Shown here piece by piece: positions 7,776 to 64,000 of a DNA stretch of 64,000 nt. The notes below the pieces were generated by a model. The model was given only the letters and a program-made list of their open reading frames with translations, was not told the DNA's origin and did not search any database. This DNA comes from Synechococcus sp. (lineage in GTDB: Bacteria > Cyanobacteriota > Cyanobacteriia > PCC-6307 > Cyanobiaceae). The stretch's first letter is position 1, and each line of letters opens with the position of its first letter. The stretch spans positions 187,798-251,797 of the forward strand of contig JBJBCN010000002.1 in the NCBI GenBank assembly GCA_047285805.1, in the 5' to 3' direction. The position numbers and the translations under genes were made by a program.

Positions 7776-7796
7776 GTTGTTTCGAGATTGGCCAAC

Positions 7797-7822: not shown

Positions 7823-7846
7823 GCTGTCTGAAGGGGTTGATCTGGA

Positions 7847-8581: not shown

Positions 8582-8656
8582 GGCACAGAGAATGACTGGC
8601 TTCATCCTGCCAGCGATCTCCGGGTTGTGTGCCCTTTGGGGGTGTGGATCCCCCGA

Positions 8657-9640: not shown

Positions 9641-9651
9641 GGGGGAAGGCC

Positions 9652-10044
9652 TCAGGCTTCGGTGGCTTCTTCAGCGGGAGCCTCTTCGGCGGCAGCGGCG
9701 GCTTCAGCAGCCTTGGCTTCTGCAGCTTCCTTGGCGGCCTGCTTGGCAGCAGCCTCGCGGATGGCGGCTTGCTTCTTCTGGCCGACGACCACGGAGGGAC
9801 GCACTTTCTTCTCGATCAGACCGCCGCGCTCAAGAAGGGTTTGCACAACCTCGGTGGGCTGGGCGCCCTGGGCGAGACGGGCACGGATGGCCTCGGTGTC
9901 AAGACGGGTCTCCTTGGTGCGGGGGTTGTAGAAGCCCAGCTCCTCGAGGGGACGACCGTCGCGGCGTGAGGTGCTGTTGCAGGCCACCAGGCGGAAGCTC
10001 GCTTCCCGCTTCTTACCGAACCGCTTCAGGCGGAGCTTGATCAT
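9652..10044 (-). CDS. rpsP: 30S ribosomal protein S16
   Basis: [12 protein letters not shown]...[15 protein letters not shown]; Ala/Glu/Lys-rich tail; the true start is ATG 10044, inside the longer track ORF. Confidence 0.97.
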
Positions 10045-10135
10045 TGTGGCCTTGCCTTGCTGACTGGATAAACGCGCGGTGACTCCCCAGGGAATCGCGC
10101 GCAAACGACAACAATACTCTCTGGGGTGACGCCCC

Positions 10136-11611: not shown

Positions 11612-11671
11612 GGGGACGCCTGTGATGAACCGATCGTAAAAAGCGACCGTCTCTTGGGGGCGTCCGAGGGC

Positions 11672-13645: not shown

Positions 13646-13786
13646 ATTGAGCTCGGATTGGCGGGAGCTAATCGGACGTGACTGTAGGCAGAGTCTTCGG
13701 TTTTGGCCGTCCTTCGTGCACCTTTTGGAGATGGACCCCGTACAGTCAGGCCAGCACCAGAGTCCCCGGAGAGCAGGACCTCAGCA

Positions 13787-14896
13787 ATGACACAGGCCGA
13801 TCTTGGACAGGGCGTGGCCACCAGTGGTGCTCCCTCCTGCTCCGCCGATGTCAATCAGGTCGGCTTGCACGCTGAGCGGCTGATGAGCCTCTATCCCTCT
13901 ACTCCGGCAACGGTGACGCGGGATGAGGGCCTAATGCTTTACCGCGACATGACCCTTGGCCGGCGCTTTGAAGATAAGTGCGCCGAGATGTACTACCGCG
14001 GAAAGATGTTCGGCTTTGTTCATCTCTACAACGGCCAAGAGGCCGTGAGTACGGGGGTGATCAAGGCGATGAAGATGCAGCACGACTGGTTCTGCAGCAC
14101 CTACCGCGATCACGTTCACGCCCTGAGCTGCGGCGTGACGGCCCGGGAGGTTATGAGCGAGCTGTTCGGTAAGGAGACCGGCTGCAGCAAGGGCCGTGGC
14201 GGCTCCATGCACCTCTTCTCCAAGGAGCACCACCTTTTGGGTGGTTATGCCTTCATCGGTGAGGGCATTCCCGTGGCCCTGGGTGCGGCCTTCACCAGCC
14301 GCTACAAGCGCGATGCCCTCGGCGACTCCAGCAGCGACGCCGTGACCGCGGCCTTCTTCGGCGACGGCACCTGCAACATTGGTCAATTCTACGAGTGCCT
14401 GAACATGGCGGCGCTCTGGAAGCTGCCGATCATTTTCGTGGTCGAGAACAACAAGTGGGCCATCGGCATGGACCACAACCGCGCCACCAGTGACCCGGAG
14501 ATCTGGCGTAAGGCGGCCGCCTTCGGGATGGCCGGCGAAGAAGTCGACGGCATGGATGTTTTGGCGGTACGGGGTGCAGCCCAGCGCGCGATCGAGCGGG
14601 CCCGCTCTGGTGAAGGTCCCACGGTGCTCGAGTGCCTGACCTACCGCTTCCGCGGCCACTCCCTGGCGGACCCCGACGAACTACGGGCGGAGGCCGAGAA
14701 GGAGTTCTGGGCCCAGCGTGATCCGATCAAGCGCCTGGCGGCTCACCTGATCGAGCACAACCTGGCGACGGTTGAGGAACTGAAGGCGATCGAGAAGGAG
14801 ATTGACGCCGAGGTGGCCGATTGCGTCGAGTTCGCCCTGGCGGCTCCCGAGCCCAAGCCGGAAGAGCTCACCCGCTACATCTGGGCTGAGGACTGA
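13787..14896 (+). CDS. pdhA: Pyruvate dehydrogenase E1 alpha subunit
   Basis: [23 protein letters not shown]...NN TPP motif, [13 protein letters not shown]. Confidence 0.96.
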
Positions 14897-14906
14897 TCTC
14901 CCGTTG

Positions 14907-15821
14907 TTAAAGCCCGTGTAAACGGGCTTGCTCGTTGGCGGCCCGGAAGACCAGGCCGTGGCGCCGCACGAGGGGTTTGAGTTCGTCGTAGCCACCGCCA
15001 ATCACCGTGGCGATTGGAATGTTGCGCCGCAGGCAGCTGTCCAGCACCAACCGGTCCCGGTTGAGCAGGCCGTGGTTGCTGAGTTGGAGTCGGCCGAGCC
15101 GGTCCTCACGGTGGGGGTCAACGCCGGCGTTGTAGAGCACTAAATCAGGTTGCTCTTGATCGAGCAGGGTTGGAATCAGATCGCCAATCGCCTCCAGATA
15201 GGCGTCGTCTCCGAGGCCATCGTCTAAGGCCAGGTCGACATCGCTTTGTTTTTTGCGCAGCGGAAAGTTACTGCCGCAGTGCACCGAGAGGGTGAAGACC
15301 CTGGGCTCGTCGGCAAAGATCACGGCGGTGGCATCCCCCTGGTGCACATCCAGGTCGATCACCATCAGTCGCTGCACCTGCCCTTCGGCCAGCAGGACCT
15401 GGGCGGTAACCGCGCAGTCGTTGAAGATGCAGAAGCCGCTGCCGTGGTCGGGGTAGGCGTGGTGGGTGCCTCCGGCCAGGTGGCAGGATACACCGTGCTC
15501 CAGGGCCAGCCTGGCCGTCAGCAGGGATCCGCCCACCGCCAGCCAGGTGCGTTGCACCAAGGGGGTCGTGGCCGGTAGGCCTATGCGGCGCTGCTCAGCT
15601 GGCAGCAGCTCACCGCGGGCGAAGGCCTGGTGGTACCGGCGGTTATGGGTGAGCTCAAGCCAGCGCCTGGGTACTGGCAGCGGGCGATGGATTTGCTCGT
15701 CCCGCGCAATCCCCTGTTCCTCCAGCAGGGTGCGGAGGAGTTTGAACTTCGCCATCGGGAATCGATGGCTACTGGGCAAGGGGGCCGAGTAGGCCGGGTG
15801 GTATACGAGCGGCAGGCGCAC
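14907..15821 (-). CDS. Histone deacetylase family protein
   Basis: HRFPM.K, GGTHHA, GFCIFND, DLDVHQGD, GGGY. Confidence 0.92.
   Translation of the reverse strand: MRLPLVYHPAYSAPLPSSHRFPMAKFKLLRTLLEEQGIARDEQIHRPLPVPRRWLELTHNRRYHQAFARGELLPAEQRRIGLPATTPLVQRTWLAVGGSLLTARLALEHGVSCHLAGGTHHAYPDHGSGFCIFNDCAVTAQVLLAEGQVQRLMVIDLDVHQGDATAVIFADEPRVFTLSVHCGSNFPLRKKQSDVDLALDDGLGDDAYLEAIGDLIPTLLDQEQPDLVLYNAGVDPHREDRLGRLQLSNHGLLNRDRLVLDSCLRRNIPIATVIGGGYDELKPLVRRHGLVFRAANEQARLHGL
14910..14929. terminator. Hairpin at the pdhA/HDAC convergence
   Basis: aagcccgt-gtaa-acgggctt. Confidence 0.45.
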
Positions 15822-51068: not shown

Positions 51069-52112
51069 ATGCAAGACGTCGTCCAGGCCTATTACGGCAA
51101 GGAACTCCAGAGCACCGCTGACCTGAAGACCAGTGCCTGCTGCGATGCCGATGCGGTGCCGGATTGGTTGAAGCCCCTGCTCAGTCGGGTCCATCCGGAA
51201 GTCAGCAGTCGCTACTATGGCTGCGGCCTGGTTTGTCCGCTGCTGCTGAAAGGCTGCCGTGTCCTTGACCTAGGCAGCGGCAGTGGTCGCGATGTCTATC
51301 TGCTCTCCCAGTTGGTGGGGGCCGGCGGCGAGGTGGTCGGTGTGGACATGACCCCAGAGCAGCTCGCGGTGGCTCGGGAGTACCTCCCCTTCCACGCCGA
51401 GCAATTCGGTTACGCCAATGTCAGCTTCCTCGAGGGCCAGATCGAGCGTCTCGAGGAGCTCGACCTGGAGCCCGGCAGCTTTGACGTCATCGTCAGCAAC
51501 TGTGTTCTGAATCTCTCCACCGACAAGCCCGCTGTCTTACGCGGCATTCAGCGGCTGCTCAAGCCCGGCGGCGAGTTCTATTTCTCTGACGTCTACGTCG
51601 ATCGACGCCTGCCGGAAGCGGTGCAAAGCCATCCGGTGCTCTATGGCGAATGCCTTGGCGGCGCGCTCTACTGGAATGACTTCCTGCGGATGGCCCGCGG
51701 GGCGGCTTTCACGGATCCGCGTCTGGTGAGCGATCGGCCGCTGGAGATCACCGAGCCCCAACTAGCGGCGTTGGTGGGGGAGGCCCGCTTTTATTCGGCG
51801 ACCTACCGGCTCTTCAACATCCCCGAACTCGAGGACGCCTGTGAAGACCACGGTCAGGCTGTCCTCTACCGGGGCTCCATCGACCAGGCGCCCACCCGCC
51901 TGGCGTTCGACAAACACCACAGCATCGAAGTCGACAAGGTCTTCCCGGTTTGCGGCAACACCTATCGGATGCTGTCCCAGACCCGTTTCGCCCCCCACTT
52001 CCAGTTCATTGGTAATTTCGAGCGTCACTTCGGCCTCTTTGAAGGCTGTGGTTCAGCGATTCCCTTTGATCAGGACCGTGCGGTGCGCGGAGCAGCCGCC
52101 AGCTGCTGCTGA
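51069..52112 (+). CDS. arsM: Arsenite methyltransferase-like (ArsM/AS3MT family)
   Basis: YYGCG, VLDLGSGSGRD, GVDMT..QL, SNCV.NL, GECLGGA, C-terminal CC. Confidence 0.75.
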   Translation: MQDVVQAYYGKELQSTADLKTSACCDADAVPDWLKPLLSRVHPEVSSRYYGCGLVCPLLLKGCRVLDLGSGSGRDVYLLSQLVGAGGEVVGVDMTPEQLAVAREYLPFHAEQFGYANVSFLEGQIERLEELDLEPGSFDVIVSNCVLNLSTDKPAVLRGIQRLLKPGGEFYFSDVYVDRRLPEAVQSHPVLYGECLGGALYWNDFLRMARGAAFTDPRLVSDRPLEITEPQLAALVGEARFYSATYRLFNIPELEDACEDHGQAVLYRGSIDQAPTRLAFDKHHSIEVDKVFPVCGNTYRMLSQTRFAPHFQFIGNFERHFGLFEGCGSAIPFDQDRAVRGAAASCC

Positions 52113-52945
52113 TGGCCGCCGCGCCGGGGCCCTTCAGCGTCAATGAGCGTTGCATTGACTGCGGCACCTGCTGGCAATTCGATCCTCTGCACTTCGCCCC
52201 CACCGGCCGCTGCGCCGAGGTCATTCGCCAGCCCGAGGGGGCGGCGGAAACGCATCAGGCTCTGTTGGCCCTGCAGGCCTGTCCGGTGGCGGCTATCGGC
52301 ACGACAGCGGAGTTGCGGCGGCTGACCCCAAGCGATGGCTTTCCTGCTCTGGTCACCCGCCATGCAGCTGGAGAGGTCTACTACTGCGGCTGGGCGTCAC
52401 GCCGCAGTTTCGGGGCCAGCAGCTGGCTCGTGGTTCGGCCCGAAGGCAACGTCCTGATCGATTCGCCCCGTTGGAGTGCTCCCTTGGCTCGGCGCATCGC
52501 TGCCTTGGGCGGGCTTGCAGCCCTGGTGTTCACCCATCGCGACGACGTGGCCGACCACCAGCGCTGGGCCAAGGCTTTTGGTTGCAGCCGTTGGATTCAC
52601 CAGGCCGACGCCGATGCTGCGCCAGACACGGAGCATCGGGTCCCGGGATCCGATGCGGTCACCCTCGATGGGGCGTTGCAGTTGATTCCCTGCTCTGGCC
52701 ACACGGCTGGGTCGATGTCGGTCCTCTTGGGCGAACACCGCTCGGTGCTCTTCAGTGGTGATCACCTCTGGTGGCGCCCTGAACAAGCGGTGCTGGTGGC
52801 TTCGGAGCGTTATTGCTGGTGGGATTTCCAGGAGCAGCTCCGCTCGGTGGAGCGCTTGCAGGAGCTGGATGTGACCTGGCTGCTCCCCAGCCACGGCCAC
52901 GCCCACGCGTTTGCTCCCGCTGAGTGGCGCGCCGCTGTCCAGTAG
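52112..52945 (+). CDS. Ferredoxin-MBL fold hydrolase fusion
   Basis: CIDCGTC...CPV then THRDDVADH, GHT.GS, GDH, PSHG. Confidence 0.85.
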   Translation: MAAAPGPFSVNERCIDCGTCWQFDPLHFAPTGRCAEVIRQPEGAAETHQALLALQACPVAAIGTTAELRRLTPSDGFPALVTRHAAGEVYYCGWASRRSFGASSWLVVRPEGNVLIDSPRWSAPLARRIAALGGLAALVFTHRDDVADHQRWAKAFGCSRWIHQADADAAPDTEHRVPGSDAVTLDGALQLIPCSGHTAGSMSVLLGEHRSVLFSGDHLWWRPEQAVLVASERYCWWDFQEQLRSVERLQELDVTWLLPSHGHAHAFAPAEWRAAVQ

Positions 52946-52955
52946 ACCTTGGCCT

Positions 52956-53129
52956 TTAACCGAAAAAGCCCTTGCTGTTGAGCCAGAGCCCCAAGCCCAG
53001 CATCGGTACGAAGACAGCTCCAGCGATCTGAAGCTTGATCCGCGTAGCCGAGGGCTCCGCCTGGACCGGCTTGGCGGCTGCTTTGGCTTTGATCTTGGCT
53101 TTGGCCACGGTCTGGTTGCTGCGTTGCAT
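52956..53129 (-). CDS. Small single-TM protein
   Basis: Lys/Ala-rich N-terminus plus IAGAVFVPMLGLGLWLNSKGFFG. Confidence 0.55.
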   Translation of the reverse strand: MQRSNQTVAKAKIKAKAAAKPVQAEPSATRIKLQIAGAVFVPMLGLGLWLNSKGFFG

Positions 53130-53140
53130 TGCGCTCTCTT

Positions 53141-54127
53141 CTACCGGTCCGTGGCTCCTCCCCGGGAACCGATCTCCCCTGTCACCCAATAACGCACCCG
53201 CTCGGGATGGCTCTGGAGGTAGAAATCGACCGCGGTTTGGGCCGTTCCCTGATGGGCTTGCAGGAGGACCGCGGCCAGCTCCGTATCAGGAATCCGGAAG
53301 CGCGTCAGGAAGTCCGTCACCGAAGGGGCGATGGCACTGAGGTCTTGGCGGCCGACGGCGTGGATCCATTCCGTCCCCCCAAAGGCCCGTTTGGGATCCT
53401 CAAGAAAGCGCAGCTTGTAGCGGGCGAACATCCAGTGGGGCGTCCAGCTGGTGACGATCAGCCAACGCTGCTCACGGATGGCCTGGTCCAGCACAGCAGT
53501 CATCGCGGCACTGCTGGAGGCCATGAGGCGCATGTCCCCAAGGCCGTAGTCCTTCAGGGCGACTTGGGAGAGTTGATTGAGGCCTGAGCCGGGATCGATT
53601 CCCTGAACGTGGTTGTTGAAGCGTGCGGCGACCGAGGGTTGGCGCAAGTCGGCGATGCTCCTGAGGACTTGGGGGTCGACATAGTCTGGGACGACCCAGC
53701 CCAAGCGACCGGAGTACATCGGACCGAGGTCCAGGACCCGATCCCGGACCCGCTTCCAGTAGTCCTGATGGGTCAAGGGCAACCAGGCCATCAACATCAA
53801 ATCCAGATCGCCTCGGGCCACGGAGGCGTATTGGATGCCGATGTCGGCCAGCACCCGCTCCACAGGCCAATCGAGGTGGGTCTCAATCAGCTGCTTGGCC
53901 ATCAGGCTGATGACTTCGGCATCCGCCCAGGGCGACCAGCCCAGGCGCAAGGGGCGACGTGAGACTCCCCCTCCCGTTGGCTGCGCTGGAGGACCAGACC
54001 CTGTCTGGCTGGGCTCAGGCGCCCCTGGGCGCCGGCTCAACTGGACCATGCTGGCCAGGGACAGTCCGGCGACCCCCAGTCCTGCGGTGAGTGCCGCACG
54101 CCGCGTCAGCCGTGGTGCGTCACTCAT
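53141..54127 (-). CDS. proX: Glycine betaine ABC transporter substrate-binding protein
   Basis: Tat-like TRR signal, GWSPW, LMAWLP.TH, GIDPGSG, W.PHWMF. Confidence 0.88.
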   Translation of the reverse strand: MSDAPRLTRRAALTAGLGVAGLSLASMVQLSRRPGAPEPSQTGSGPPAQPTGGGVSRRPLRLGWSPWADAEVISLMAKQLIETHLDWPVERVLADIGIQYASVARGDLDLMLMAWLPLTHQDYWKRVRDRVLDLGPMYSGRLGWVVPDYVDPQVLRSIADLRQPSVAARFNNHVQGIDPGSGLNQLSQVALKDYGLGDMRLMASSSAAMTAVLDQAIREQRWLIVTSWTPHWMFARYKLRFLEDPKRAFGGTEWIHAVGRQDLSAIAPSVTDFLTRFRIPDTELAAVLLQAHQGTAQTAVDFYLQSHPERVRYWVTGEIGSRGGATDR

Positions 54128-54996
54128 TGGCCTCTCCTCCAATGGCTGGGGGAAAGTCCTTGGCTTAGGCGGTCCAGGATCACCGCCAAGATCACCACGG
54201 CGATGCCGCCTTCAAAGCCGAGCCCCACATCGAGCTGCTGGATGCCACGCAGCACCACATCACCCAAGCCACCACCGCCAATCATCGAGGTGATCACCAC
54301 CATCGAGAGGGCCAACATGATCGTCTGGTTGATACCGCTCATCACGGTGGGCAAGGCGTTCGGGAGCTGCACCATCCAAAGCAGTTGAAGATCCGTGCAG
54401 CCAAAGGAGCGGCCCGCCTCCACCAAATCAGCCGGCACCTGGCGAATCCCCAGGTGGGTCAGCCGGACGACCGGAGGCATCGCGAAAATCAACGTGGCGA
54501 TGATCGCGGGAACGGCTCCCGTGCTGAAGAGCATCACCGCCGGGATCAAATAGACAAAAGCCGGCATGGTCTGCATGAGGTCCAGCGCCGGGCGTAGCAG
54601 TCGCCAAATCCAGAGCTGACGCGTTCCCAGAACACCGAGGGGAAATCCCAGCAGCAGAGCCAAGAGGGAGGAGGCCAGCACTAGGGCCAGGGTGTCCACC
54701 ATGGGATCCCACAGCCCCAGGGCTAAGACAAGGTTCAAGCCCAGCAGGCTGAAGAGGGCAAAGCCACCGCCGACCAGGCGCCATCCCGCAAGGGCAACCC
54801 CCACGGCAAACAGCCAGGGTGCCGGCAGGGCCAGGCTCCAGCCCAGTGCGCTCGCCAAGGTCTGGATGCCCTGTTGAACAACACCAAACAATCCCTGGCC
54901 ATGGTTGAGCAACCACTCCACCGCGGCATCAACGCTCTGGCCGACGGGCCCGGCCTGCTCAAGGCTTGCGATGAGAGGTGAGAAGGAGCAGCTCAT
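54124..54996 (-). CDS. proW: Glycine betaine ABC transporter permease
   Basis: LD.MQTMPAFVYLIP, EA..SFG, NQTIMLALSMVV. Confidence 0.92.
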   Translation of the reverse strand: MSCSFSPLIASLEQAGPVGQSVDAAVEWLLNHGQGLFGVVQQGIQTLASALGWSLALPAPWLFAVGVALAGWRLVGGGFALFSLLGLNLVLALGLWDPMVDTLALVLASSLLALLLGFPLGVLGTRQLWIWRLLRPALDLMQTMPAFVYLIPAVMLFSTGAVPAIIATLIFAMPPVVRLTHLGIRQVPADLVEAGRSFGCTDLQLLWMVQLPNALPTVMSGINQTIMLALSMVVITSMIGGGGLGDVVLRGIQQLDVGLGFEGGIAVVILAVILDRLSQGLSPSHWRRGQ

Positions 54997-56129
54997 CAGA
55001 CACCCTCCCGCAGGGTCTCCAGCAGCCGCCGGGGCGTGACAACACCCAGCAGCCGCTTCTGGTGATCAAGAACCGGAGTAGGCCATGGGTTCCGAGCGAC
55101 GGCGGGGATGGCGTCGTTGACCAGAGATTTGGACTCAAGCGCGCCTGTGGCTTCGGCCTGGATCCACCCGTCCTGGGGGCTAAGGATCCCCAGGAATTGC
55201 CCCGATGGGTTCAGGGCGAAACACAGCTGCTGATGGCCCCGGTCCGCGGGATCTGCCCCATCGGGCAGGACCAGGGTCTGAGTGCAGGGCTCGCGGATCT
55301 GCTCGAGGTTCAGGACGGAACCCCGGTCGACGCCCTTGAAGAAGGCTCGAACCTCGTGGCTGGCTGGCGCCGTGAGCAGCTCTAGGGGAGTCCCGCATTG
55401 GAGGACCTGCCCCGATTGCATTAGCGCGACGCGATCGCCAATGCGAATGGCCTCATCGAGGTCATGGGAGATGAAGACCACCGTGCGTCGCTGTTCCGCC
55501 TGCAGATCCAGCAGAAGGTCCTGCATGTCCCTGCGGATCAGGGGATCGAGGGCGGAGAAGGCCTCATCCATCAACAGGATGGGGGGATCGAGTGCCAGGG
55601 CCCGGGCCAAGCCCACCCGTTGCTGCATGCCCCCGGAGAGTTGCGCCGGTTTCAGGTGCTGCTGCTGTCCTAGACCTACGCGCTCCAGTGCCCTTTTGGC
55701 CGGAGCCAACCGCTTGGCCCTGGGCAGCCCTGCGACTTCGAGCCCAAAGGCCGCATTGTCGAGAACGCTCCGCTGGGGGAAGAGCGCGAACGATTGGAAC
55801 ACCATGGCCATGGCTTGCCGGCGCAGGCGGTTGAGTTCGCGTTTGGAGAGGTCGGACAGGTTCTGACCGCGGACTGCGACGGATCCCGAGCTGGGTTGGA
55901 TCAGTCCATTAATCATCCGCAACAGGGTCGATTTGCCTGAGCCAGAGAGGCCCATGACTACAAAAACTTCGCCCGGTTCGATCGCTAGGGATACCTGCTG
56001 GACGGCGGCAGCGGATTGGCCTGGGAATTGTTTGGAGAGGGCGTCGAGCGTGATCGCTGAAGACACGGTTCTCCGACCCACTTTTTTAAACGCTAGCCAT
56101 GCATGAGTAGGAGCGCAGGTGTGACCCAT
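54996..56129 (-). CDS. proV: Glycine betaine ABC transporter ATPase
   Basis: VMGLSGSGKS, LSGGMQQRVGLARAL, LMDEAFSALDPLIR. Confidence 0.93.
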   Translation of the reverse strand: MGHTCAPTHAWLAFKKVGRRTVSSAITLDALSKQFPGQSAAAVQQVSLAIEPGEVFVVMGLSGSGKSTLLRMINGLIQPSSGSVAVRGQNLSDLSKRELNRLRRQAMAMVFQSFALFPQRSVLDNAAFGLEVAGLPRAKRLAPAKRALERVGLGQQQHLKPAQLSGGMQQRVGLARALALDPPILLMDEAFSALDPLIRRDMQDLLLDLQAEQRRTVVFISHDLDEAIRIGDRVALMQSGQVLQCGTPLELLTAPASHEVRAFFKGVDRGSVLNLEQIREPCTQTLVLPDGADPADRGHQQLCFALNPSGQFLGILSPQDGWIQAEATGALESKSLVNDAIPAVARNPWPTPVLDHQKRLLGVVTPRRLLETLREGV

Positions 56130-56386
56130 GAACTTAGGTCTTTAGCAAGTTCAAACATTTGCTCGGATGGCCTTTGCTCACTTTGATGTCGGCGACAGCA
56201 GGACACGTGTGTTTTGCAACAGGGCCCGCTTTGCGCTGACAGCCATGGTGCTCATCGATAGGTTGCGGCCATGGCGCACTTCATGGCTTTGTGACGTGTG
56301 TCCGGAGGCCTCTTTTGAGGTGATCCCCCCAGCCCTCTTGCTGAGCTCTGAACGGTCTGCGTCTGTCAGTGGCTCCCCCGGTTTGA

Positions 56387-57259
56387 ATGACGACATCTCA
56401 TCGCACCAAGACCTCGGCGGCCCATCGGCCCAAGTCCGCGGGGGCGAAGGATGAACAGCGTTTCGGTGCGGTCCCCGAAGCCGTTCGGGAGACCGATCAC
56501 TATCAACAGGAATACATCGAGCAATTTGCAGATCGTTGGGACCGGCTGATTGATTGGGAGGCCAGAGCCCAGGCTGAAGGTGATTTTTATATCCGCATCC
56601 TGCGGGAGCATGGTGCGAAATCGGTACTCGATGTCGCCACGGGGACAGGCTTCCACTCGATTCGACTCCTGCAGGAGGGGTTCGATGTGGTCAGCGCCGA
56701 CGGCAGTCCCAACATGTTGGCGCGGGCATTTCGTAATGCTCGCGACCGCAACCAGCTGTTGAGGACGGCCCAGGCCGATTGGCGATTTTTGAACCGTGAT
56801 ATTCACGGAACATTCGATGCGGTGATTTGCCTGGGTAACTCGTTCACCCATCTCTTTCGCGAGAAGGATCGTCGTAAATCCCTGGCTGAGTACTACGCCG
56901 TCTTGAAGCACAATGGTCTTCTGATTCTTGACCACCGCAACTACGACCGCCTCTTAGAAGGTGGTGCCGCGGTGAAGCAAGGCAAGGGAACGGTGTATTG
57001 CGGAGAAGATGTTTCCGTGAGCCCTGATTGTGTCGATGAGGGCTTGGCACGCTTTCGCTACGCCTTCAGTGATGGAAGCACTTTCCACCTGAATATGTTC
57101 CCGCTCCGCTATGGCTATGTGCGCCGACTGATGCGGGAAGTTGGCTTTCAAAAGATCACCAGCTACGGGGACTATCAGCGCAGCAAGGACGATCCCGATT
57201 TCTACGCCCATGTCGCCCATAAGGCCTACGAGACCGATGGCGATACGACGGTGATCTAG
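56387..57259 (+). CDS. gsmt: Glycine/sarcosine N-methyltransferase
   Basis: Y..EY...F..RWD.LIDW, LDVATGTGFHS, CLGNSFTHL, LD.RNYD. Confidence 0.9.
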   Translation: MTTSHRTKTSAAHRPKSAGAKDEQRFGAVPEAVRETDHYQQEYIEQFADRWDRLIDWEARAQAEGDFYIRILREHGAKSVLDVATGTGFHSIRLLQEGFDVVSADGSPNMLARAFRNARDRNQLLRTAQADWRFLNRDIHGTFDAVICLGNSFTHLFREKDRRKSLAEYYAVLKHNGLLILDHRNYDRLLEGGAAVKQGKGTVYCGEDVSVSPDCVDEGLARFRYAFSDGSTFHLNMFPLRYGYVRRLMREVGFQKITSYGDYQRSKDDPDFYAHVAHKAYETDGDTTVI

Positions 57260-57261
57260 TC

Positions 57262-58113
57262 ATGACTCAGACGCACTTCTCCGCCTCAGAGCGCACCGCT
57301 TCGGACTACTACGACAGCGCCGATGCTGATTGTTTCTATGAAGAGATTTGGGGCGGTGAAGACATTCACATCGGCCTTTACGCTTCCGAGACCGAAGCCA
57401 TCGCATCGGCCAGCCAGCGTACGGTCAACGCCTTAATCGCCTTGATTGGCACCCTCCCGCGCGGGGCCACGGTCGTTGATTTGGGTTCGGGATATGGCGG
57501 TGCTGCCCGGCGCCTCGCCAAGGAGTTCGGGGCCCATGTCGAGGCGATCAATATCTCGGCCGTTGAAAACGCCCGGCACCGTCGGCTCAACCAGAGTGCC
57601 GGATTGCAGGACCAAATCCAGGTGCACGATGCCTCCTTTGAGGACGTTCCCCTGCCCTCAGGCTGTGCGGATGTGGTCTGGAGTCAGGACGCGATCCTGC
57701 ACTCCGGCAACCGTCAGCAGGTCCTCCAGGAGGCGGCGCGGTTGTTGAAGCCAGGCGGTGTGATGGTCCTCACGGATCCGATGGCCGCCGATGGGGTGGA
57801 TACAGGTTCCCTGAGCGCGATCCTCGACCGCATTCACCTGCCCGACATGGGATCACCGGATCGCTATCTAGCCTGGGCCAGTCAGGCCGGCTTGGTCCGT
57901 GAGGTCTGGCAGGACCAGACGGCGATGTTGATTCGCCATTACGGCCGCGTCCGCGAGGAGCTTCTGCGCCGAGAGCAGGAGTTGAAGACCAAGATCAGCC
58001 AGGAGTACCTCCAGCGGATGGCCGCTGGCTTGGGTCATTGGATTGATGGTGGACGCCAGGGACGTCTGAGTTGGGGGCTGATGCGCTTCCGCAAGCCTCT
58101 GCAGGAGGCCTAA
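57262..58113 (+). CDS. sdmt: Sarcosine/dimethylglycine N-methyltransferase
   Basis: YY.S.DAD.FY..IWGGEDIHIGLY, DLGSGYGG, WSQDAILHS, TDPM. Confidence 0.9.
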   Translation: MTQTHFSASERTASDYYDSADADCFYEEIWGGEDIHIGLYASETEAIASASQRTVNALIALIGTLPRGATVVDLGSGYGGAARRLAKEFGAHVEAINISAVENARHRRLNQSAGLQDQIQVHDASFEDVPLPSGCADVVWSQDAILHSGNRQQVLQEAARLLKPGGVMVLTDPMAADGVDTGSLSAILDRIHLPDMGSPDRYLAWASQAGLVREVWQDQTAMLIRHYGRVREELLRREQELKTKISQEYLQRMAAGLGHWIDGGRQGRLSWGLMRFRKPLQEA

Positions 58114-58238
58114 TGGAATCCTTCGCCGGTGCGGTTGTGATTTTTGTGGTGGGCGGTGTCGTCACCTTGGCGACCACCGTGATGGTGATTCAGGGCCATC
58201 TCCATTGGCGCGGCCGTGACCCGTGGGGGGAGGGCTAA
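58113..58238 (+). CDS. 41-aa single-TM micro-protein
   Basis: MESFAGAVVIFVVGGVVTLATTVMVIQGHLHWRGRDPWGEG; ATG overlaps the sdmt TAA; stop 3 bp before the symporter. Confidence 0.65.
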   Translation: MESFAGAVVIFVVGGVVTLATTVMVIQGHLHWRGRDPWGEG

Positions 58239-58241
58239 GCC

Positions 58242-59681
58242 ATGGCGTTCGCTCCCATGCTTGCTGTGCAGCCGTTCTTGGCCCCAGGCCTTGCCTGGGC
58301 CCTGGTGGTCATCTTCTCGGTGCTCTGGATCGCACTCGGGGTGTCCTGGGGGCAGCGCGGCTCTGGTGATGCCGATGACTACATGTTGGCCGGCCGCAAC
58401 ATCGGTTTGGCCCTTAGCACCGCAACCTTGATGGCGTCCTGGGTGACCGGCAACACCACTTTGTTGGCGCCGGAGTTTGGTTATCGGAACGGCCTCTGGG
58501 GAATGTTCAGTTACGCCCTGGCCGGTCTGGGCTTGGTCCTGTTTGCGCCATTGGCCCTACGGATCAAACACCTGATGCCCAAGGGGCGCACCAGCGGTGA
58601 CTTCATTCGCCTCCGCTACGGCCGCGCGACCTGGTGGGTCTTCATGGTGATCACCGCCATCTACACCCTCGGTTTCCTGATGACCCAGGCGATGGGAGCG
58701 GGGATCCTGCTGGAGGCCCTTTCGGGTTTTGACTACCGCCTAGGGATGGTCGTAGTGATTGGCGTCTCGACGATCTATACCCTCTATGGCGGGATGCGCG
58801 CCGTTGTGGGAACGGACTTCATTCAGTCCCTCTTGATAATGGGGCTGCTGGTTTTGGTTGCCGTGTTGGCGCTGCAGCAGTTCCCGGTTCCTGAGCTCCA
58901 TCGCGCTTTGGTCGAGGAACATCCGGAGCGGCTGAATTTGCTTTTGCCGGCGGGTTTGTTGATTGCTTGGAACTCCGCCCTCTTCTCTATGGGCGAGGTC
59001 TTCCACAACAACATATGGTGGTCAAGGGTATTCTCCAGTCGTGCCTCCGTCGTCTTTAGCTCGTTCGTGCTCGGCGGCTTGGCATGGATGACGGTGCCTT
59101 TGGTGACTGGCTCCATCGGCCTGGTGGCGTTGGCTCAGTCGGTGGATTTGCCCCAGGTGAACATGCTGTTCCCGGTTGTGGCCTCCCAGTTGCTTGGGGC
59201 GGGGGGTGCGGCCTTGGTCTTTGTGGTCGTCTTTGCCTCGTTGACCTCAACATTGGATTCGCTATTGGCTTCGACGGCGGATTTGGTAGCCGAAGACGTG
59301 GTCTTCAAGCTGCTGAATCCCAATTTGAGTGATGCCCAATTGCGGCAGGCCACGCGCCTTGTGGTTCTGGGGTTGGGGCTTTTGACCTTGCTGCTGTCGT
59401 GGCCGCGCCTGGATTCCTTGGCGTCCGTTCTCTTCTTCACCGGTGCCCTTGTGGCTTCCACGATCTGGCCGGTGGCCTACGGCCTCTATTGGCGCAGTGC
59501 GAACCGGTGGGCCGCCATTGCCGCGATGGTCTCCGGCAGTGCCGTGGGCCTGGCTGCGTATGTCCTGATCGCGCCCTACTGCGCGGCGTTGCTCTCCGCA
59601 GCGGTCTCGGCGGCGGTGATGGCTGTGGGCACTCAGTTTCAGCCCGAGCGCTTCAACTGGCTCACCTTGAAGGAGGGATAA
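58242..59681 (+). CDS. Sodium:solute symporter family transporter
   Basis: About 13 TM segments, YMLAGRN.G, YTL.GG..AVV.TD..Q, S..STLDS.L. Confidence 0.88.
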   Translation: MAFAPMLAVQPFLAPGLAWALVVIFSVLWIALGVSWGQRGSGDADDYMLAGRNIGLALSTATLMASWVTGNTTLLAPEFGYRNGLWGMFSYALAGLGLVLFAPLALRIKHLMPKGRTSGDFIRLRYGRATWWVFMVITAIYTLGFLMTQAMGAGILLEALSGFDYRLGMVVVIGVSTIYTLYGGMRAVVGTDFIQSLLIMGLLVLVAVLALQQFPVPELHRALVEEHPERLNLLLPAGLLIAWNSALFSMGEVFHNNIWWSRVFSSRASVVFSSFVLGGLAWMTVPLVTGSIGLVALAQSVDLPQVNMLFPVVASQLLGAGGAALVFVVVFASLTSTLDSLLASTADLVAEDVVFKLLNPNLSDAQLRQATRLVVLGLGLLTLLLSWPRLDSLASVLFFTGALVASTIWPVAYGLYWRSANRWAAIAAMVSGSAVGLAAYVLIAPYCAALLSAAVSAAVMAVGTQFQPERFNWLTLKEG

Positions 59682-59684
59682 GTC

Positions 59685-59909
59685 ATGGCACGGTTTCGGA
59701 TGACAACCCGCTGGGCCCTCACCCTTGCCCTGTTGGCTGTGCTGATGCCTGTGGCCAGGGCGGGAGAAGCGAGCGCGCCACCGCGCTGGTTGGCAGATCT
59801 TCCATTGCTGCAGGTTTTGATCTACGGAAGCGTTGCGGGCTTGGCTCTTTCGGTGCTGATCCTGTTGATCCTTTGGTGGAAAGAGTGGAGGCGCGGTGAT
59901 GTTTGGTGA
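59685..59909 (+). CDS. Small membrane protein
   Basis: Signal-like N-terminus, one TM, WWKEWRRGDVW tail; 3 bp after the symporter. Confidence 0.65.
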   Translation: MARFRMTTRWALTLALLAVLMPVARAGEASAPPRWLADLPLLQVLIYGSVAGLALSVLILLILWWKEWRRGDVW

Positions 59910-60079
59910 TCTCTAAGACTTTATAAATTCGTTGCTTGCACTTTCTTGAACCTCTGGCTAGTAATCGAGAAGGCAGGAGCAACTGAACCAAGCTTCACCG
60001 CTGTCCTCGCAGAGGCACTTCTTTTGACTGCGCTTATCAGGAGTCCTTCTCCCTGATGTCTCAGGTCTGATTTCCCGAA

Positions 60080-61195
60080 ATGGTCATCTCTTCTCCCTCT
60101 TCTCATCTTGTCTCAGAACGCTCTATGCGTTTCAAGCCGATGGGGCCAGATGTCTACGGGGCGACTTCTCCTAAGGACCTTCTTTTAGCGATTGAAGAAG
60201 ATGGTGATGCACTTCATGACTTGGCCGACCAGCACGTAATATCTGTCCAACCATTCAAGGCGAATACACTGCTTCAATTGTTCCGTCTAGCCGCGAAATA
60301 CGAGAGCAATCCTGAGCGCTATACCTCACATAATACACCCCTAAAAGGCAAGATTCTTATAAATGCTTTTTATGAGCCTAGTACGCGTACAAGGCTGTCG
60401 TTTGATAGCGCTTGGCATCGCCTGGGTGGCGACTCTATTAATATAACAGACCGAAGTACAACTGGCTTGGCCAAGGGTGAGTCTTATGAAGATGTTGCGC
60501 ATATGTTTAATAATTATGGCGACTGTATTGTTCTTAGGGACGGAGACTCGAGCGCTGTCTATTCGATGGCGGATACTCTTCGCATTCCGATTATTAACGC
60601 AGGTAATGGGATTGATGAACACCCCACTCAGGCAATGGCCGACCTCTATACGATTCTAAAGTGGAGGCCTTCTTTGGTTGCTTCTGAGGTCTCTCCTGGA
60701 GAGCGGGTGAGAATCGGAGTCGTTGGAATCCCAAGTCGTATGCGAACTGTCCGCTCGCTTCTGCGGATTCTTGTTAAATTTCCTCAAATTGTTGAGGAGC
60801 TTGTGCTTATACATGACCCTGCCAAAAACGCTGCCGAGGAATTGTTCGACCCCGGGCAATTGGAGGAGTTACAGCAGGTTGGAGTCAATGTGCGTTGCAC
60901 CGGAGATCTTCAGGGTGAAATCCCTGGGCTTGATGTCATCTATATCAATGCAATCGCTTGGGTGGGTGATAGTTATGAGGTGCATGGTCATTCCTTCCGT
61001 CTGACCAGAGATCTGCCGTACAAGCCAAATGCAATTGTTCTGCACCCTCTGGCTCGAGGCCCGGAGCTGAGCACCTGCCTCGATAACACCCCCCACAACT
61101 GGTATTTCAGTCAGGCCCGGGGTGCGGTCTTCCTGCGGATGGCTCTGCTCACCTGCATGGTGGATCGCACCAACCGGGTCATGGATGTGATCTGA
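60080..61195 (+). CDS. ATCase/OTCase-superfamily carbamoyltransferase (PyrB-like paralog)
   Basis: FYEPSTRTRLSF, KGES, INAGNG..EHPTQ, HPL.R; the Asp-binding TRxQ motif is replaced by NAIA. Confidence 0.85.
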   Translation: MVISSPSSHLVSERSMRFKPMGPDVYGATSPKDLLLAIEEDGDALHDLADQHVISVQPFKANTLLQLFRLAAKYESNPERYTSHNTPLKGKILINAFYEPSTRTRLSFDSAWHRLGGDSINITDRSTTGLAKGESYEDVAHMFNNYGDCIVLRDGDSSAVYSMADTLRIPIINAGNGIDEHPTQAMADLYTILKWRPSLVASEVSPGERVRIGVVGIPSRMRTVRSLLRILVKFPQIVEELVLIHDPAKNAAEELFDPGQLEELQQVGVNVRCTGDLQGEIPGLDVIYINAIAWVGDSYEVHGHSFRLTRDLPYKPNAIVLHPLARGPELSTCLDNTPHNWYFSQARGAVFLRMALLTCMVDRTNRVMDVI

Positions 61196-61207
61196 GGAGG
61201 AACGCGT

Positions 61208-63256
61208 ATGTGTGGAATCGGCGGTGTCTTCAGCACCACGGCGGATCAAGCCGTTGATCCCCAGCTTCTGGTCAACATGGCCGCGATCCAGGAGCATCGC
61301 GGTCCCGATGGTTTTGGCTATCGCACAGTCGATGGATGCGGAGTGGGCTTCTGCCATGCCCGCCTGTCGATCATTGACCTCAATGAGACCAGGGCACGCC
61401 AACCGTTCTTAAGCGGAGAGCCGGGGTCGGGTGCGCGGGTCCTGATGGCCCACAACGGCGAGTTCTATGACTTCCAGCGGATTCGCGCCGACCTGACGGC
61501 CCGCGGTGTTCGCTTCAGCAGCAAGAGCGATTCCGAAATCCTGCTGCGCCTCTACCAACAGCAGGGCTTGCAGGCGACCCTGCCGCAACTGCGCGGTGAA
61601 TTCGCCTTCGCGCTTTATGACGAGGCCGGAGATACGTTGCATCTCGTCCGGGATCGTTTCGGTATCAAGCCCCAGTACTGGACGATCACTCCCCAGGGCT
61701 TGGTCTTCGGTTCAGAGCTGAAGGTGTTGTTTGCCCATCCGGCGGTGGAGCGCCGCTTCACCTCGGAAGGGCTCTTCCATCAGTTGATGCAAACCATGGT
61801 CCCCGGAACCACCGCCTTTGAGGGGATCCGTCAGGTGCCGCCCGGTCACGGCATCAGCGTGCGCCGCCGCAACGGCAGCCTGCAGGTCGAGACCTGGAAG
61901 TACTGGGATATGGACTTCCCCCGCCAGGGCGAGCGGGACAGCAGCAAGACCGAGTCCGACCACATCGATGCGATTCGTGCGGCGCTGCTCGAAGCGGTGG
62001 AGCTGCGGATGGTCGCCGATGTGCCCGTGGGTTGTTACCTCTCGGGAGGCATCGACAGTTGCTCCATCCTCGGCCTGGCCGCCGCCGTCAGCCAGAGCCC
62101 GGTCAAGGCGTTCACCATTGGTTTCGATGACGCCCGCTACGACGAGTCGCCGATCGCCAAGGAGATGGCCGACGCCACGGCGGCCGAGCAGGACGTGATG
62201 CGTCTCTCGGGTAGGGAGCTCTACGGCTGGATGGAGCGCACCCTCTGGCACACCGAGCGGACGATCTACAACACCTTGGCGGTGGCGAAATTCCTGATGA
62301 GCCGCCATGTCAACCAGGTCAACTACAAGGTGGTGATGACTGGGGAGGGCTCCGATGAGCTCTTCGGTGGCTATCCGGCCTTCCGACGCGACATGTTCCT
62401 GCACGGTCTCCAGGACCTGCCTGAGCAGGACCGTCAGGCCTGGGAGGACTTGTTGCAGCAGTCCAATGCCCTGGTGCAGGGGGCAATGTTGGCGGCGGAT
62501 CAAGTGGATGATCCGGACCTCGATGCGGTCGTTGGTTTCACCCCCAGTTGTCTCCAGCCCTGGTTGGCCTGCGCGCCGCTGGTGCCGGCCCTGCTCGCGG
62601 ATGCCCATCGCGAGGCCCTCTCGGGCTATTCCCCGGGCAAGGCCATTGCCAAGACCTTGGATGCGGAACAACTCGAGGGACGCCACGCCCTCGATAAGGC
62701 CCAGTACGTCTGGATCAAGACGATGTTGGAGGGCCAAATCCTGACCTGGGGCGGTGACCGGGTCGATATGGCGAATTCCATGGAGGCGCGTCCGGCCTTC
62801 TTGGATCACCATCTGGCCGCGGCGGCGGTTCAGGTGCCGCCGGAGTTGCGGATTAAGGGGAAGACGGAGAAGTACGTCCTGCGGGAGGCCATGGCCGGTC
62901 TGCTGCCGGAGGTGCTCTACAAGCGCGAGAAATTTGCCTTCATGGCCCCGCCGGCCCATACCGAGCTCGAGAAGTGGGAGCAGATGAAGCAGCTGGCGAA
63001 CGACTATCTCAGTGATGAGGCGATCGAAGCCGCGGGACTGCTCAGCGTGGATGGCGTTCGGGCCCTCTTCGCCCGCCATGGCGACCCGGCGACCACCGAT
63101 GCCGATCGGGTGCAGATGGACGCCATGATCAACCATCTTCTCGGCGCGCAGATGCTGCACAGGATGTTCATTGCCGCGGACGTGCCGGCACAGGCCCGGG
63201 CCAAGGCCGATGCCCTGGGTTGGCATCCCGCTCGGGAGGCTGCTGCCGTTTGCTGA
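61208..63256 (+). CDS. asnB: Asparagine synthase (glutamine-hydrolysing)-type amidotransferase
   Basis: MCGI Ntn Cys, HRGPDG, HNGEFY, RDRFGIKP, LSGGIDS, TGEGSDELFGGY, E.RPAFLD. Confidence 0.88.
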   Translation: MCGIGGVFSTTADQAVDPQLLVNMAAIQEHRGPDGFGYRTVDGCGVGFCHARLSIIDLNETRARQPFLSGEPGSGARVLMAHNGEFYDFQRIRADLTARGVRFSSKSDSEILLRLYQQQGLQATLPQLRGEFAFALYDEAGDTLHLVRDRFGIKPQYWTITPQGLVFGSELKVLFAHPAVERRFTSEGLFHQLMQTMVPGTTAFEGIRQVPPGHGISVRRRNGSLQVETWKYWDMDFPRQGERDSSKTESDHIDAIRAALLEAVELRMVADVPVGCYLSGGIDSCSILGLAAAVSQSPVKAFTIGFDDARYDESPIAKEMADATAAEQDVMRLSGRELYGWMERTLWHTERTIYNTLAVAKFLMSRHVNQVNYKVVMTGEGSDELFGGYPAFRRDMFLHGLQDLPEQDRQAWEDLLQQSNALVQGAMLAADQVDDPDLDAVVGFTPSCLQPWLACAPLVPALLADAHREALSGYSPGKAIAKTLDAEQLEGRHALDKAQYVWIKTMLEGQILTWGGDRVDMANSMEARPAFLDHHLAAAAVQVPPELRIKGKTEKYVLREAMAGLLPEVLYKREKFAFMAPPAHTELEKWEQMKQLANDYLSDEAIEAAGLLSVDGVRALFARHGDPATTDADRVQMDAMINHLLGAQMLHRMFIAADVPAQARAKADALGWHPAREAAAVC

Positions 63257-63265
63257 TGTTCAGCC

Positions 63266-63289
63266 CGTAATGGTCACAACCGTTACGGG
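63266..63289 (+). other. Stem-loop between asnB and the M20 hydrolase
   Basis: ccgtaatggt-caca-accgttacgg; no T tract. Confidence 0.35.
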
Positions 63290-63346
63290 AGCTCTGGGAG
63301 CTCTCCTCGATCGTGGGGGTGCTCTGTTAGATGTGAAGGTCTGAGG

Positions 63347-64000
63347 TTGGTTCTCTCTGCCCCGGGCGTTGGTACCCACACCACGACTGCACAGCGTCGG
63401 CCTACTCCTAATGCGATGCGCCTGCTGGCGTCCCTGGAGGCCATGGCCGAGGTGGGACTGCAGCCCGATGGTTCGATCTGTCGCCGGGGCTTCACGGCTG
63501 AAGACCGTCAGGGCCGCGAACGACTGAGTGAATGGATGATTGATGCCGGCCTGAGCCTGCGCATCGATGCCGCTGGCAATTTAATTGGCAGGCTTGAGGG
63601 TTCGGCCCCCAGCCTTCCAGCCCTCGTCACCGGCTCGCATCTCGACACGGTCCCAACGGGGGGGCGCTACGACGGCACCCTCGGTGTCTTGGCGGGCCTG
63701 GAATTGGTTCGCGCGCTTCAGGACGCCTCGCTCCAGCTCCGCCACCCCTTTGAGTTGATCGTCTTTGCCGACGAGGAGTCCACGATGGTGGGCTGCAAGG
63801 GCATGGCCGGCACCGCCAGCGCTGACCCCAGCGACTACACCACCAGCAACGGTGTGCCGATTGAGCGAAACCTGGCGCGTCTCGGGGGGGATTGGGACCG
63901 GCTTGCCAGCGCCGCCCGCAGTGATGACGCAATTGCAGCCTTCATCGAACTGCATGTGGAGCAGGGGGCCGTACTCGAGTGGCGTGGAGACAGCATTGGT
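63347..64000 (+). CDS. M20 Zn-dependent hydrolase, N-carbamoyl-L-amino-acid amidohydrolase family (partial)
   Basis: Manual translation: D.AGNL.GR, TGSHLDTVPTGGRYDG.LGV, F.DEE, FIELHVEQG; runs off window; start TTG 63347 or ATG 63416. Confidence 0.88.
   Translation, partial: MVLSAPGVGTHTTTAQRRPTPNAMRLLASLEAMAEVGLQPDGSICRRGFTAEDRQGRERLSEWMIDAGLSLRIDAAGNLIGRLEGSAPSLPALVTGSHLDTVPTGGRYDGTLGVLAGLELVRALQDASLQLRHPFELIVFADEESTMVGCKGMAGTASADPSDYTTSNGVPIERNLARLGGDWDRLASAARSDDAIAAFIELHVEQGAVLEWRGDSIG

Follow-up and report, generated by a model that had tools for sequence, protein, structure and literature searches.

The closest described relatives of the gene analyzed here are a set of aspartate transcarbamylase (ATCase) paralogues that Barba, Dutoit, Legrain, and Labedan named pseudo-ATCases (2013, BMC Syst Biol 7:99; PMC4016543). 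In that study, two motifs separate pseudo-ATCases from ATCases: HPLA, and AIA, AIS, or SIA in the position of RxQ. A marine subgroup (Rhodopirellula baltica, Nitrosococcus oceani, Synechococcus WH 8102, and Kangiella koreensis) was given neither a substrate nor a role; its synteny block comprises a Na+ symporter, the pseudo-ATCase, an AsnB-like gene, and an N-carbamoyl-amino-acid amidohydrolase (PMC4016543). The only pseudo-ATCase that has been assayed, Rxyl_2847 of Rubrobacter xylanophilus, belongs to a different subgroup with an H[ST]LP motif and is a ureidoglycine transcarbamylase (UGTCase) (PMC4016543; reviewed in PMC4581275). Here, we analyze a putative transcarbamylase gene at positions 60080 to 61195, and the gene module around it, in a 64,000-nucleotide (nt) stretch of Synechococcus sp. 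DNA (GenBank assembly GCA_047285805.1, contig JBJBCN010000002.1, positions 187,798 to 251,797 of the forward strand); this whole stretch is referred to below as the window.

The reading that we favor, at a probability of roughly 55%, is that the marine pseudo-ATCase would N-carbamoylate a neutral L-amino acid and that the AsnB-like enzyme would amidate its carboxylate, giving an N-carbamoyl amino-acid amide that acts as a compatible solute. What is new here is the consistent AsnB-type partner with an intact active site, the two hydrolases, and the repeated linkage to betaine and MscS genes; the family itself has already been published. An initial annotation, made from the window sequence, had proposed a new transcarbamylase specificity for this gene. 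The part of that proposal concerning a non-aspartate acceptor is supported by the results below, but the idea is not new, as it is already present in Barba et al. (PMC4016543). The gene and its diagnostic motifs are as follows.

60080-61195, + strand: pseudo-ATCase (putative non-aspartate transcarbamylase), 371 amino acids (aa); ATCase fold, own clade, below equivalog cutoffs
60380-60394, + strand: S-T-R-T-R carbamoyl-phosphate motif, residues 101 to 105, by alignment to E. coli PyrB
60620-60631, + strand: H-P-T-Q carbamoyl-phosphate motif, residues 181 to 184, by alignment to E. coli PyrB
60941-60961, + strand: Y-I-N-A-I-A-W, residues 288 to 294, replacing ATCase Y-M-T-R229-V-Q231-K, by alignments
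61043-61057, + strand: H-P-L-A-R, residues 322 to 326, replacing ATCase H-P-L-P-R, by alignment; this is the "HPLA" signature of Barba et al. (PMC4016543, Table 1)

The open reading frame (ORF) is intact (371 codons), and its product matched both halves of the fold in Pfam (OTCace_N, E value of 5e-41; OTCace, 3e-10). The best solved relatives were ATCase catalytic chains, from a plant (6yw9, E value of 3e-42) and from E. coli (~1e-37), with identity to solved ATCases of ~33 to 35%. Residues were mapped onto PyrB of E. coli MG1655, and a HMMER alignment to the plant enzyme gave the same register. As judged from this alignment, the carbamoyl-phosphate site is complete: S101 to R105 correspond to PyrB S52-T-R-T-R56, K132 to K84 of the 80s loop, R153 to R105, and H181 to Q184 to H134-P-T-Q137. 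PyrB HPLPR aligns with H322-P-L-A-R326, in which L324 within H-P-L is retained and the cis-proline, Pro268, is replaced. The Arg that binds the alpha-carboxylate is also retained (R167 in GRTVHS of PyrB; R222 in MRTVRS here).

The site for the aspartate side chain is altered. PyrB Y226-M-T228-R229-V-Q231-K232-E-R234 aligns with Y288-I-N290-A291-I-A293-W294-V-G296, a register that is safe because a D-[VI]-x-Y anchor (D-V-I-Y here) joins the motif without a gap. Thus, compared with PyrB (E. coli 1d09 and 1q95; plant 6yw9), the enzyme shares the fold, the carbamoyl-phosphate site, and the alpha-carboxylate Arg but differs at R229, Q231, K83 (no counterpart), K232 (Trp), R234 (Gly), and P268. It further differs in a 240s loop that is 6 residues shorter and in a conserved N-terminal extension of ~45 residues, in which F18, D24, G27, P31, L35, and E40 are invariant across phyla; and its gene is accessory. 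The initial annotation had read the same residues directly from the sequence, and the PyrB alignment agrees with it throughout: the carbamoyl-phosphate residues (STRT, HPTQ, the 80s-loop Lys, and HPL) and the alpha-carboxylate Arg (RTVRS) are kept, and YINAIAW stands in place of the ATCase motif at exactly nt 60941 to 60961.

Conservation of these positions was assessed in 201 cluster representatives of at least 340 aa, drawn from two top-120 homologue lists. N290 and W294 were each present in 201 of 201 relatives. Position 291 was Ala in 183, Ser in 16, and Thr in 2, and position 293 was Ala in 177, Ser in 22, and Thr and Val in 1 each; neither position was ever Arg or Gln. STRTR, K132, R153, HPTQ, and R222 were each kept in 200 to 201 relatives, and all 201 have H-P-L-A rather than the ATCase pattern H-P-[LG]-P. 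Conservation of this kind argues that the loss of the aspartate site is not due to chance or decay and is under purifying selection.

Scores against curated models placed the protein outside every named class. It fell below every curated cutoff for ATCase, OTCase, PTCase, AOTCase, and YgeW, with 192.9 bits for TIGR00670 (cutoff, 236.95), 180.2 for NF002032 (cutoff, 263), 93.7 to 108 for OTCase models (cutoffs, 281 to 306), and 67.7 for PTCase (cutoff, 500); the OTCase and PTCase motifs D-x-x-x-S-M-G and H-C-L-P were absent from the aligned protein. The same genome carries a separate canonical pyrB (280.8 bits, above the cutoff, with L-R-L-Q-K-E-R) as well as argF, and no pyrI or pyrC partner was found in the context of the transcarbamylase gene. 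In a quick maximum-likelihood tree, the family formed a clade with 100% support in a Shimodaira-Hasegawa-like approximate likelihood ratio test (SH-aLRT). It shared a long branch (0.76; support, 99) with two sister groups, and this branch fell within the ATCase radiation; the outgroup included OTCase, PTCase, and YgeW.

On these grounds (family-wide loss of the beta-carboxylate ligands R229 and Q231; absence of three more positive residues at the Asp site or in the domain-closure region, K83, K232, and R234; scores below cutoffs; a separate pyrB; and a distinct clade), the enzyme is almost certainly a paralogue of the true pyrB product with an acceptor other than aspartate. A neutral acceptor is supported as the most economical reading of the lost positive charge. 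The prediction of a neutral or different acceptor in the initial annotation is therefore supported in silico by ligand loss in 201 relatives, by scores, by the pyrB paralogue, and by the clade; the alignment and phylogeny with ATCase, OTCase, PTCase, and YgeW that it had proposed as a check yielded the separate, fully supported group. A sister clade (P0130, P0134 to P0149, P0155, and P0170) consists of ATCase-like proteins of ~355 aa that have the same N-terminal extension as well as the motifs KWRP and HNxYF. In that clade, S-T-R-T-R is degenerate and K-G-E of the 80s loop is lost, and its members may be unable to bind carbamoyl phosphate; the single context seen had no AsnB-like neighbor.

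By motif and gene context, the window transcarbamylase is a member of the published marine pseudo-ATCase subgroup. Membership was assigned in this way because the table rows and the subgroup numbers in PMC4016543 disagree. The STRT, HPTQ, HPLA, and AIA/AIS/SIA motifs are the same and so are the neighbors, with nothing essential different: the genes of the published synteny block are found in the window at 58242 to 59681, 61208 to 63256, and 63347 onward, and likewise across 80 plus 23 loci. The second hydrolase, the small membrane proteins, and the betaine and MscS links described below go beyond that study, which notes none of them. UGTCase Rxyl_2847 is likewise an ATCase-derived pseudo-ATCase, and its acceptor has an uncharged side chain (PMC4016543; PMC4581275), so the pseudo-ATCase lineage is able to switch to neutral alpha-amino acids. 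It differs in having H[ST]LP instead of HPLA, in its neighbors (carbamate kinase, allantoinase, and uricase), and in its role in purine breakdown; neither carbamate kinase nor purine-catabolic neighbors were found in the window or in the loci examined, and H-[ST]-L-P is absent. Public annotation calls the genes of this family aspartate carbamoyltransferase.

The other genes of the module are the following.

61208-63256, + strand: AsnB-type glutamine-dependent amidotransferase, 682 aa (Pfam GATase_6/7 and Asn_synthase), 12 nt after the transcarbamylase gene
63347-64000, + strand, continuing to ~64627 past the window end: M20 hydantoinase/carbamoylase-family amidase, 426 aa (NCBIfam)
~64561-65343 in window numbering, beyond the window end (7359-8141 of locus L004): DUF1028 Ntn-hydrolase, overlapping the end of the M20 gene
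58242-59681, + strand: sodium:solute symporter (SSF family), 479 aa (Pfam SSF; weak matches to PanF and PutP)
58071-58238, + strand: 55-aa single-pass membrane ORF just 5' of the symporter gene, in the same place in 31 cyanobacterial loci (tblastn)
59685-59909, + strand: 74-aa membrane ORF just 3' of the symporter gene, in the same place in 17 cyanobacterial loci

The AsnB-like protein retains the functional residues of E. coli AsnB (Cys2, R50, N75-G-E77, D99, SGGxDS, E349, and K450). With the glutaminase and adenylation residues intact, it should be an active glutamine-dependent amidotransferase. To our knowledge, every characterized member of the AsnB family activates a carboxylate. The stretch of E. 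coli AsnB that we take to bind aspartate is not conserved and is interrupted by large insertions, a difference of little evidential weight. A second AsnB-family gene lies outside the module in the same genome (G000:C2:451434-453020; 390.7 bits to TIGR01536). A housekeeping asparagine synthetase was considered for the AsnB-like gene and rejected, given this second gene elsewhere and the tie of the first to the module.

Two hydrolases accompany the pair. The M20 enzyme scored 413.5 bits against NF006771 (cutoff, 399) and 423.9 bits against the ErtE N-carbamoyl-L-glutamate amidohydrolase model (cutoff, 520), and its best solved relative is an L-N-carbamoylase (3n5f). The N terminus of the DUF1028 protein reads M-T-F-S, and its only solved relative is the uncharacterized 2imh. 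The slot of this second hydrolase is filled by DUF1028 in cyanobacteria and by an isochorismatase-type cysteine hydrolase in 22 of 23 gammaproteobacterial loci; the nearest, weak relatives of the latter are triuret/biuret hydrolase, N-carbamoylsarcosine amidase, and RutB. The two folds are unrelated; that nonorthologous proteins have come to fill a single slot argues that hydrolysis of an amide or ureide is a required step. Synechococcus-type loci, like those of proteobacteria, have the symporter gene upstream of the transcarbamylase gene; Prochlorococcus loci lack it. In proteobacteria, an unrelated ORF of ~150 to 180 aa, with a hydrophobic N terminus and a hydrophobic C-terminal stretch, precedes the symporter gene. 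No Pfam family matched any of the small ORFs flanking the symporter gene (55 aa, 74 aa, and the proteobacterial ORF of ~150 to 180 aa).

One scan of species-representative genomes returned 490 relatives in species-level genomes, and locus-level counts refer to the best 80 of these 490 loci. An AsnB-type gene (~670 aa) immediately follows the transcarbamylase gene in 77 of the 80, which span cyanobacteria, Gammaproteobacteria, and Alphaproteobacteria; in one of the remaining three, the AsnB-like gene is close by but on the other strand, and the last two loci are on contigs that end too early. DUF1028 is present in 51 loci. The Synechococcus/Cyanobium order is small membrane ORF, symporter, small membrane ORF, transcarbamylase, AsnB-like protein, M20 amidase, and DUF1028. 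In high-light Prochlorococcus (MIT 9314 and single cells from the Red Sea and elsewhere), genes for these four enzymes are likewise present, but the symporter gene is missing, and the module is inserted after nrdJ.

When Gammaproteobacteria were sampled evenly, 24 of 400 species had the gene. In the 23 further gammaproteobacterial loci retrieved, the AsnB-like gene is always adjacent to the transcarbamylase gene, and 22 of these 23 share the order (small ORF), M20, isochorismatase-type hydrolase, symporter, transcarbamylase, and AsnB-like protein. Among the gammaproteobacterial loci examined, the symporter was not found in L096 or in the purple phototroph G150. Of the 401 species sampled from the picocyanobacterial family, 71 have the gene; it occurs in 10 of 64 genera and, when only high-quality genomes are counted, in 63 of 272. 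Within the window's own genus the module is present in some species and absent from many. The module is accessory and mobile. Nearly all of its named hosts come from marine, saline, or soda-lake habitats.

A sister-clade protein of 44% identity carries the same module. Another sister-clade pair (43%-identical transcarbamylase and AsnB-like protein) lies at 7001 to 15080 of locus L088, from an actinobacterial metagenome-assembled genome. This pair is followed by JmjC/cupin, TenA-like, and two APH-type kinase genes and is also trailed by dCMP-deaminase-like and thymidylate-synthase-like genes, with a nucleoside 2-deoxyribosyltransferase-like gene upstream. By gene content, the region looks like a modified-pyrimidine or nucleoside natural-product cluster.

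A second described system that bears on the module is the one for N-acetylglutaminylglutamine amide (NAGGN), encoded by asnO-ngg with a MarR regulator and an M42 hydrolase. AsnO amidates the terminal carboxylate of the osmolyte NAGGN and is a close functional precedent for the AsnB-like enzyme. The logic of the two systems would be the same, namely, a capped glutamine-based solute with AsnB-type amidation of a carboxylate, and each has a hydrolase in the cluster and a MarR regulator close by (within a few kilobases in ~9 of 24 gammaproteobacterial loci, as in NAGGN clusters). The caps differ: in NAGGN, the cap is an acetyl group plus a peptide bond made by Ngg, whereas here it would be a carbamoyl group transferred from carbamoyl phosphate by the transcarbamylase. 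The AsnB-like protein scored 288.4 bits against the AsnO equivalog TIGR03104 (cutoff, 570.1), and no Ngg homologue was found in the module, which has neither a GNAT nor an ATP-grasp gene. As judged from these scores and gene content, the module, although it would work much as the NAGGN system does, is not a member of it.

The module is also linked to genes of osmoadaptation. In the window, one further feature abuts it.

56387-58113, + strand: glycine/sarcosine and sarcosine/dimethylglycine N-methyltransferases (glycine betaine synthesis), co-oriented with the module

These methyltransferases scored 428 bits against NF051855 (above the cutoff of 350) and 314.6 bits against NF041675. The module is flanked by proVWX and the betaine methyltransferases on one side and by glucosylglycerate-type genes on the other. 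In locus L004, beyond the window (8138 to 11972), the genes that follow the module encode a HAD phosphatase, a sucrose-phosphorylase-like protein, and a protein judged by eye to be glucosyl-3-phosphoglycerate-synthase-like, and the region concentrates several compatible-solute systems (proVWX, the betaine genes, and the genes 3' of the module). The proVWX, betaine, and glucosylglycerate neighbors are common only to the closest relative, L005; an "osmolyte supercluster" was therefore rejected as a general rule, this shared neighborhood being weak alone.

The osmolyte context nevertheless carries weight because betaine and MscS linkage arose independently in Gammaproteobacteria. In L103 and L106, the two betaine methyltransferase genes (GSMT-SDMT) directly follow the AsnB-like gene, at the module end opposite to that in the window, and in L103, proV and proX also follow. 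Betaine genes have joined the module at least twice, in different arrangements. An MscS channel gene directly follows the AsnB-like gene in L092 and L102 and is nearby in L093 and L069, and L092 has a sucrose synthase gene upstream of the module. Papers on osmoregulation in WH8102 (PMC2874817), on Red Sea single cells, and on picocyanobacterial salinity do not mention the module genes.

The pathway that we propose is the simplest that uses every gene of the module; we infer its substrate, product, order of steps, and osmotic role. The transcarbamylase would bind carbamoyl phosphate as ATCase does, through STRTR, K132, R153, HPTQ, and HPL, and R222 would grip the alpha-carboxylate of an L-amino acid. 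The side chain accepted would be uncharged and probably longer than that of aspartate, in a pocket enlarged and neutralized by R229A, Q231A, K232W, and the loss of K83. The resulting N-alpha-carbamoyl amino acid would pass to the AsnB-like enzyme, which would adenylate the free carboxylate and amidate it with ammonia derived from glutamine. The product would be an uncharged N-carbamoyl amino-acid amide, a compatible solute against salt stress, that the symporter would import or recapture. Finally, the amide hydrolase (DUF1028 here; the isochorismatase-type enzyme in Gammaproteobacteria) and the M20 L-carbamoylase would degrade the solute to amino acid, NH3, and CO2.

The leading candidate for the acceptor is L-glutamine, which would fit the enlarged, neutralized pocket better than glutamate or aspartate. 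In that case, the product would be carbamoyl-glutamine amide and the enzyme a glutamine N-alpha-carbamoyltransferase, an assignment that we make tentatively and regard as possible rather than probable. Carbamoyl-glutamine amide is a known osmolyte that reportedly accumulates together with betaine (PMC1224877; PMC7824335). It has been known since 1991 from a single Dead Sea phototroph, Ectothiorhodospira marismortui, its only known producer, and no pathway or genes for it were found in the literature. When module-bearing Gammaproteobacteria were screened for photosynthetic reaction centers, 1 of 23 (G150) was positive for pufLM.

Several points weigh against this reading. The case for glutamine draws on charge, size, and the chemistry of one known solute, and Asn, Ser, Ala, Gly, homoserine, and glutamate are also possible acceptors. 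E. marismortui is not among the 240 best named protein matches listed. High-light Prochlorococcus from nitrogen-poor waters carry the module, although not the symporter, and a solute with four nitrogens is an odd choice for them. An operon that encodes both synthesis and hydrolysis would have to be regulated to prevent a futile cycle. In most Synechococcus, the module is not beside osmolyte genes, and in two marine Synechococcus loci (L016 and L023), it is a few kilobases from urease genes. The sole pseudo-ATCase assayed, Rubrobacter UGTCase, is catabolic (PMC4016543). In the same two urease-linked loci, a member of the Rfam 5' ureB small RNA family was matched antisense to the urease region (L016, 15252 to 15538; L023, 15192 to 15478; 152 to 160 bits).

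The main rival is a catabolic ureide module, in which the symporter would take up a ureido compound, either an N-carbamoyl amino acid or one resembling allantoate, the transcarbamylase would work phosphorolytically, and the hydrolases would free ammonia for nitrogen scavenging, with the carbamoyl phosphate feeding arginine and pyrimidine synthesis. Rxyl_2847 cleaves allantoate with phosphate (PMC4016543), M20 genes of the module exceed the cutoff of the NCBIfam "allantoate amidohydrolase" subfamily, and the urease neighbors and the presence of the module in nitrogen-starved Prochlorococcus fit such a role. We consider it unlikely, chiefly because the most constant partner is an intact amidotransferase that consumes ATP and glutamine and has no role in degradation. 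A phosphorolytic transcarbamylase and a hydrolytic carbamoylase would also be redundant; neither carbamate kinase nor allantoinase accompanies the enzyme, which also lacks the H[ST]LP motif typical of UGTCases; Prochlorococcus lacks the importer; and the repeated linkage to betaine synthesis and MscS is left unexplained. The same linkage is unexplained if carbamoylation serves as a transient protecting group, such that the amidated intermediate is stripped of its carbamoyl group by the M20 enzyme to give a free amino-acid amide or another nonosmolyte, such as a signal, a precursor, or an antimetabolite. Arginine synthesis, with N-acetylation and ArgE, provides a parallel; M20 deacylases act in this way in other pathways; the genes for the transcarbamylase, the AsnB-like protein, and the M20 enzyme run in the same direction and rarely occur apart; and the actinobacterial sister-clade pair in an apparent nucleoside natural-product cluster indicates that the pair can serve secondary metabolism. 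However, L-carbamoylases, by general knowledge of the family and of the relative 3n5f, need a free alpha-carboxylate, which is missing in the amidated intermediate; the second hydrolase and the symporter would have no role; and no such free amide is known as an abundant metabolite. These difficulties make the protecting-group scheme quite unlikely.

Still less probable is a guanidino route, in which an amine would be carbamoylated and the AsnB-like enzyme would activate the ureido oxygen for replacement by ammonia, as in the handling of citrulline by argininosuccinate synthetase, to give a guanidino compound. The chemistry is economical, and AsnB and argininosuccinate synthetase share the PP-loop ATP-pyrophosphatase fold. 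We know of no AsnB-family member that acts on a ureido group, though, and the hydrolases resemble carbamoylases and ureido-amide hydrolases, not ureohydrolases; nor does the module contain a guanidine riboswitch or other Rfam element. It is hardly credible that the enzyme is a second aspartate transcarbamylase isozyme that binds aspartate differently. The best database matches are ATCases, and the public annotation follows them, but the protein has lost both ligands of the beta-carboxylate along with three further positive residues, all ATCase scores are below the cutoffs, a canonical pyrB is in the genome, there is no pyrC or pyrI context, and the gene is accessory, with a patchy distribution (71 of the 401 species sampled in the family). 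The compatible-solute pathway remains the reading that we prefer.

The window copy of the transcarbamylase gene differs in composition from its neighbors and contains one more feature.

59900-61050, no strand assigned: low-GC recombinant patch spanning the spacer upstream of the transcarbamylase gene and roughly the first 320 of its codons

The GC content at third codon positions (GC3) of the transcarbamylase gene is 0.50, versus 0.79 to 0.80 in the symporter and AsnB-like genes; in ten other loci, the transcarbamylase and AsnB-like genes match in GC. DNA identity to the sister locus L005 is 90 to 98% in the flanks and 41 to 75% from ~59900 to ~61000. Because of the patch, the transcarbamylase protein is only 84% identical to that of L005, versus 94 to 98% for the neighbors. 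The 3' junction is near the YINAIAW codons, and the family motifs are intact. The present transcarbamylase allele came from a lower-GC donor and took the place of the earlier one in situ through homologous recombination.

Searches for RNA and regulatory elements yielded little. Rfam gave no match in window positions 52000 to 64000 at E values of up to 1, and a scan for promoters and terminators did no better than on shuffled sequence. In 8 related loci, the only riboswitch was in Prochlorococcus L064 (MIT 9314), where a Glutamine-II riboswitch (7275 to 7336; 69 bits) is found ~640 nt upstream of the transcarbamylase gene, ahead of a 33-aa peptide; two other Prochlorococcus loci have Glutamine-II elsewhere, on the other strand. 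It was rejected as evidence for glutamine, since its position relative to the module is not conserved and it is probably an incidental island neighbor.

The annotation of hundreds of public entries of this family as aspartate carbamoyltransferase is almost certainly wrong. If the proposed pathway is correct, it would establish a novel transcarbamylase specificity, show an AsnB-type enzyme in a new role, and assign genes to an orphan compatible solute. It would also mean that globally abundant phototrophs have a nitrogen-costly osmolyte together with its importer and breakdown enzymes. Should the solute prove to be that based on glutamine, its producers would number about one-fifth of picocyanobacterial species, some high-light Prochlorococcus among them, and several percent of marine Gammaproteobacteria. 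It would then be a nitrogen-rich osmolyte that has been overlooked and that forms part of the dissolved organic nitrogen of the sea.

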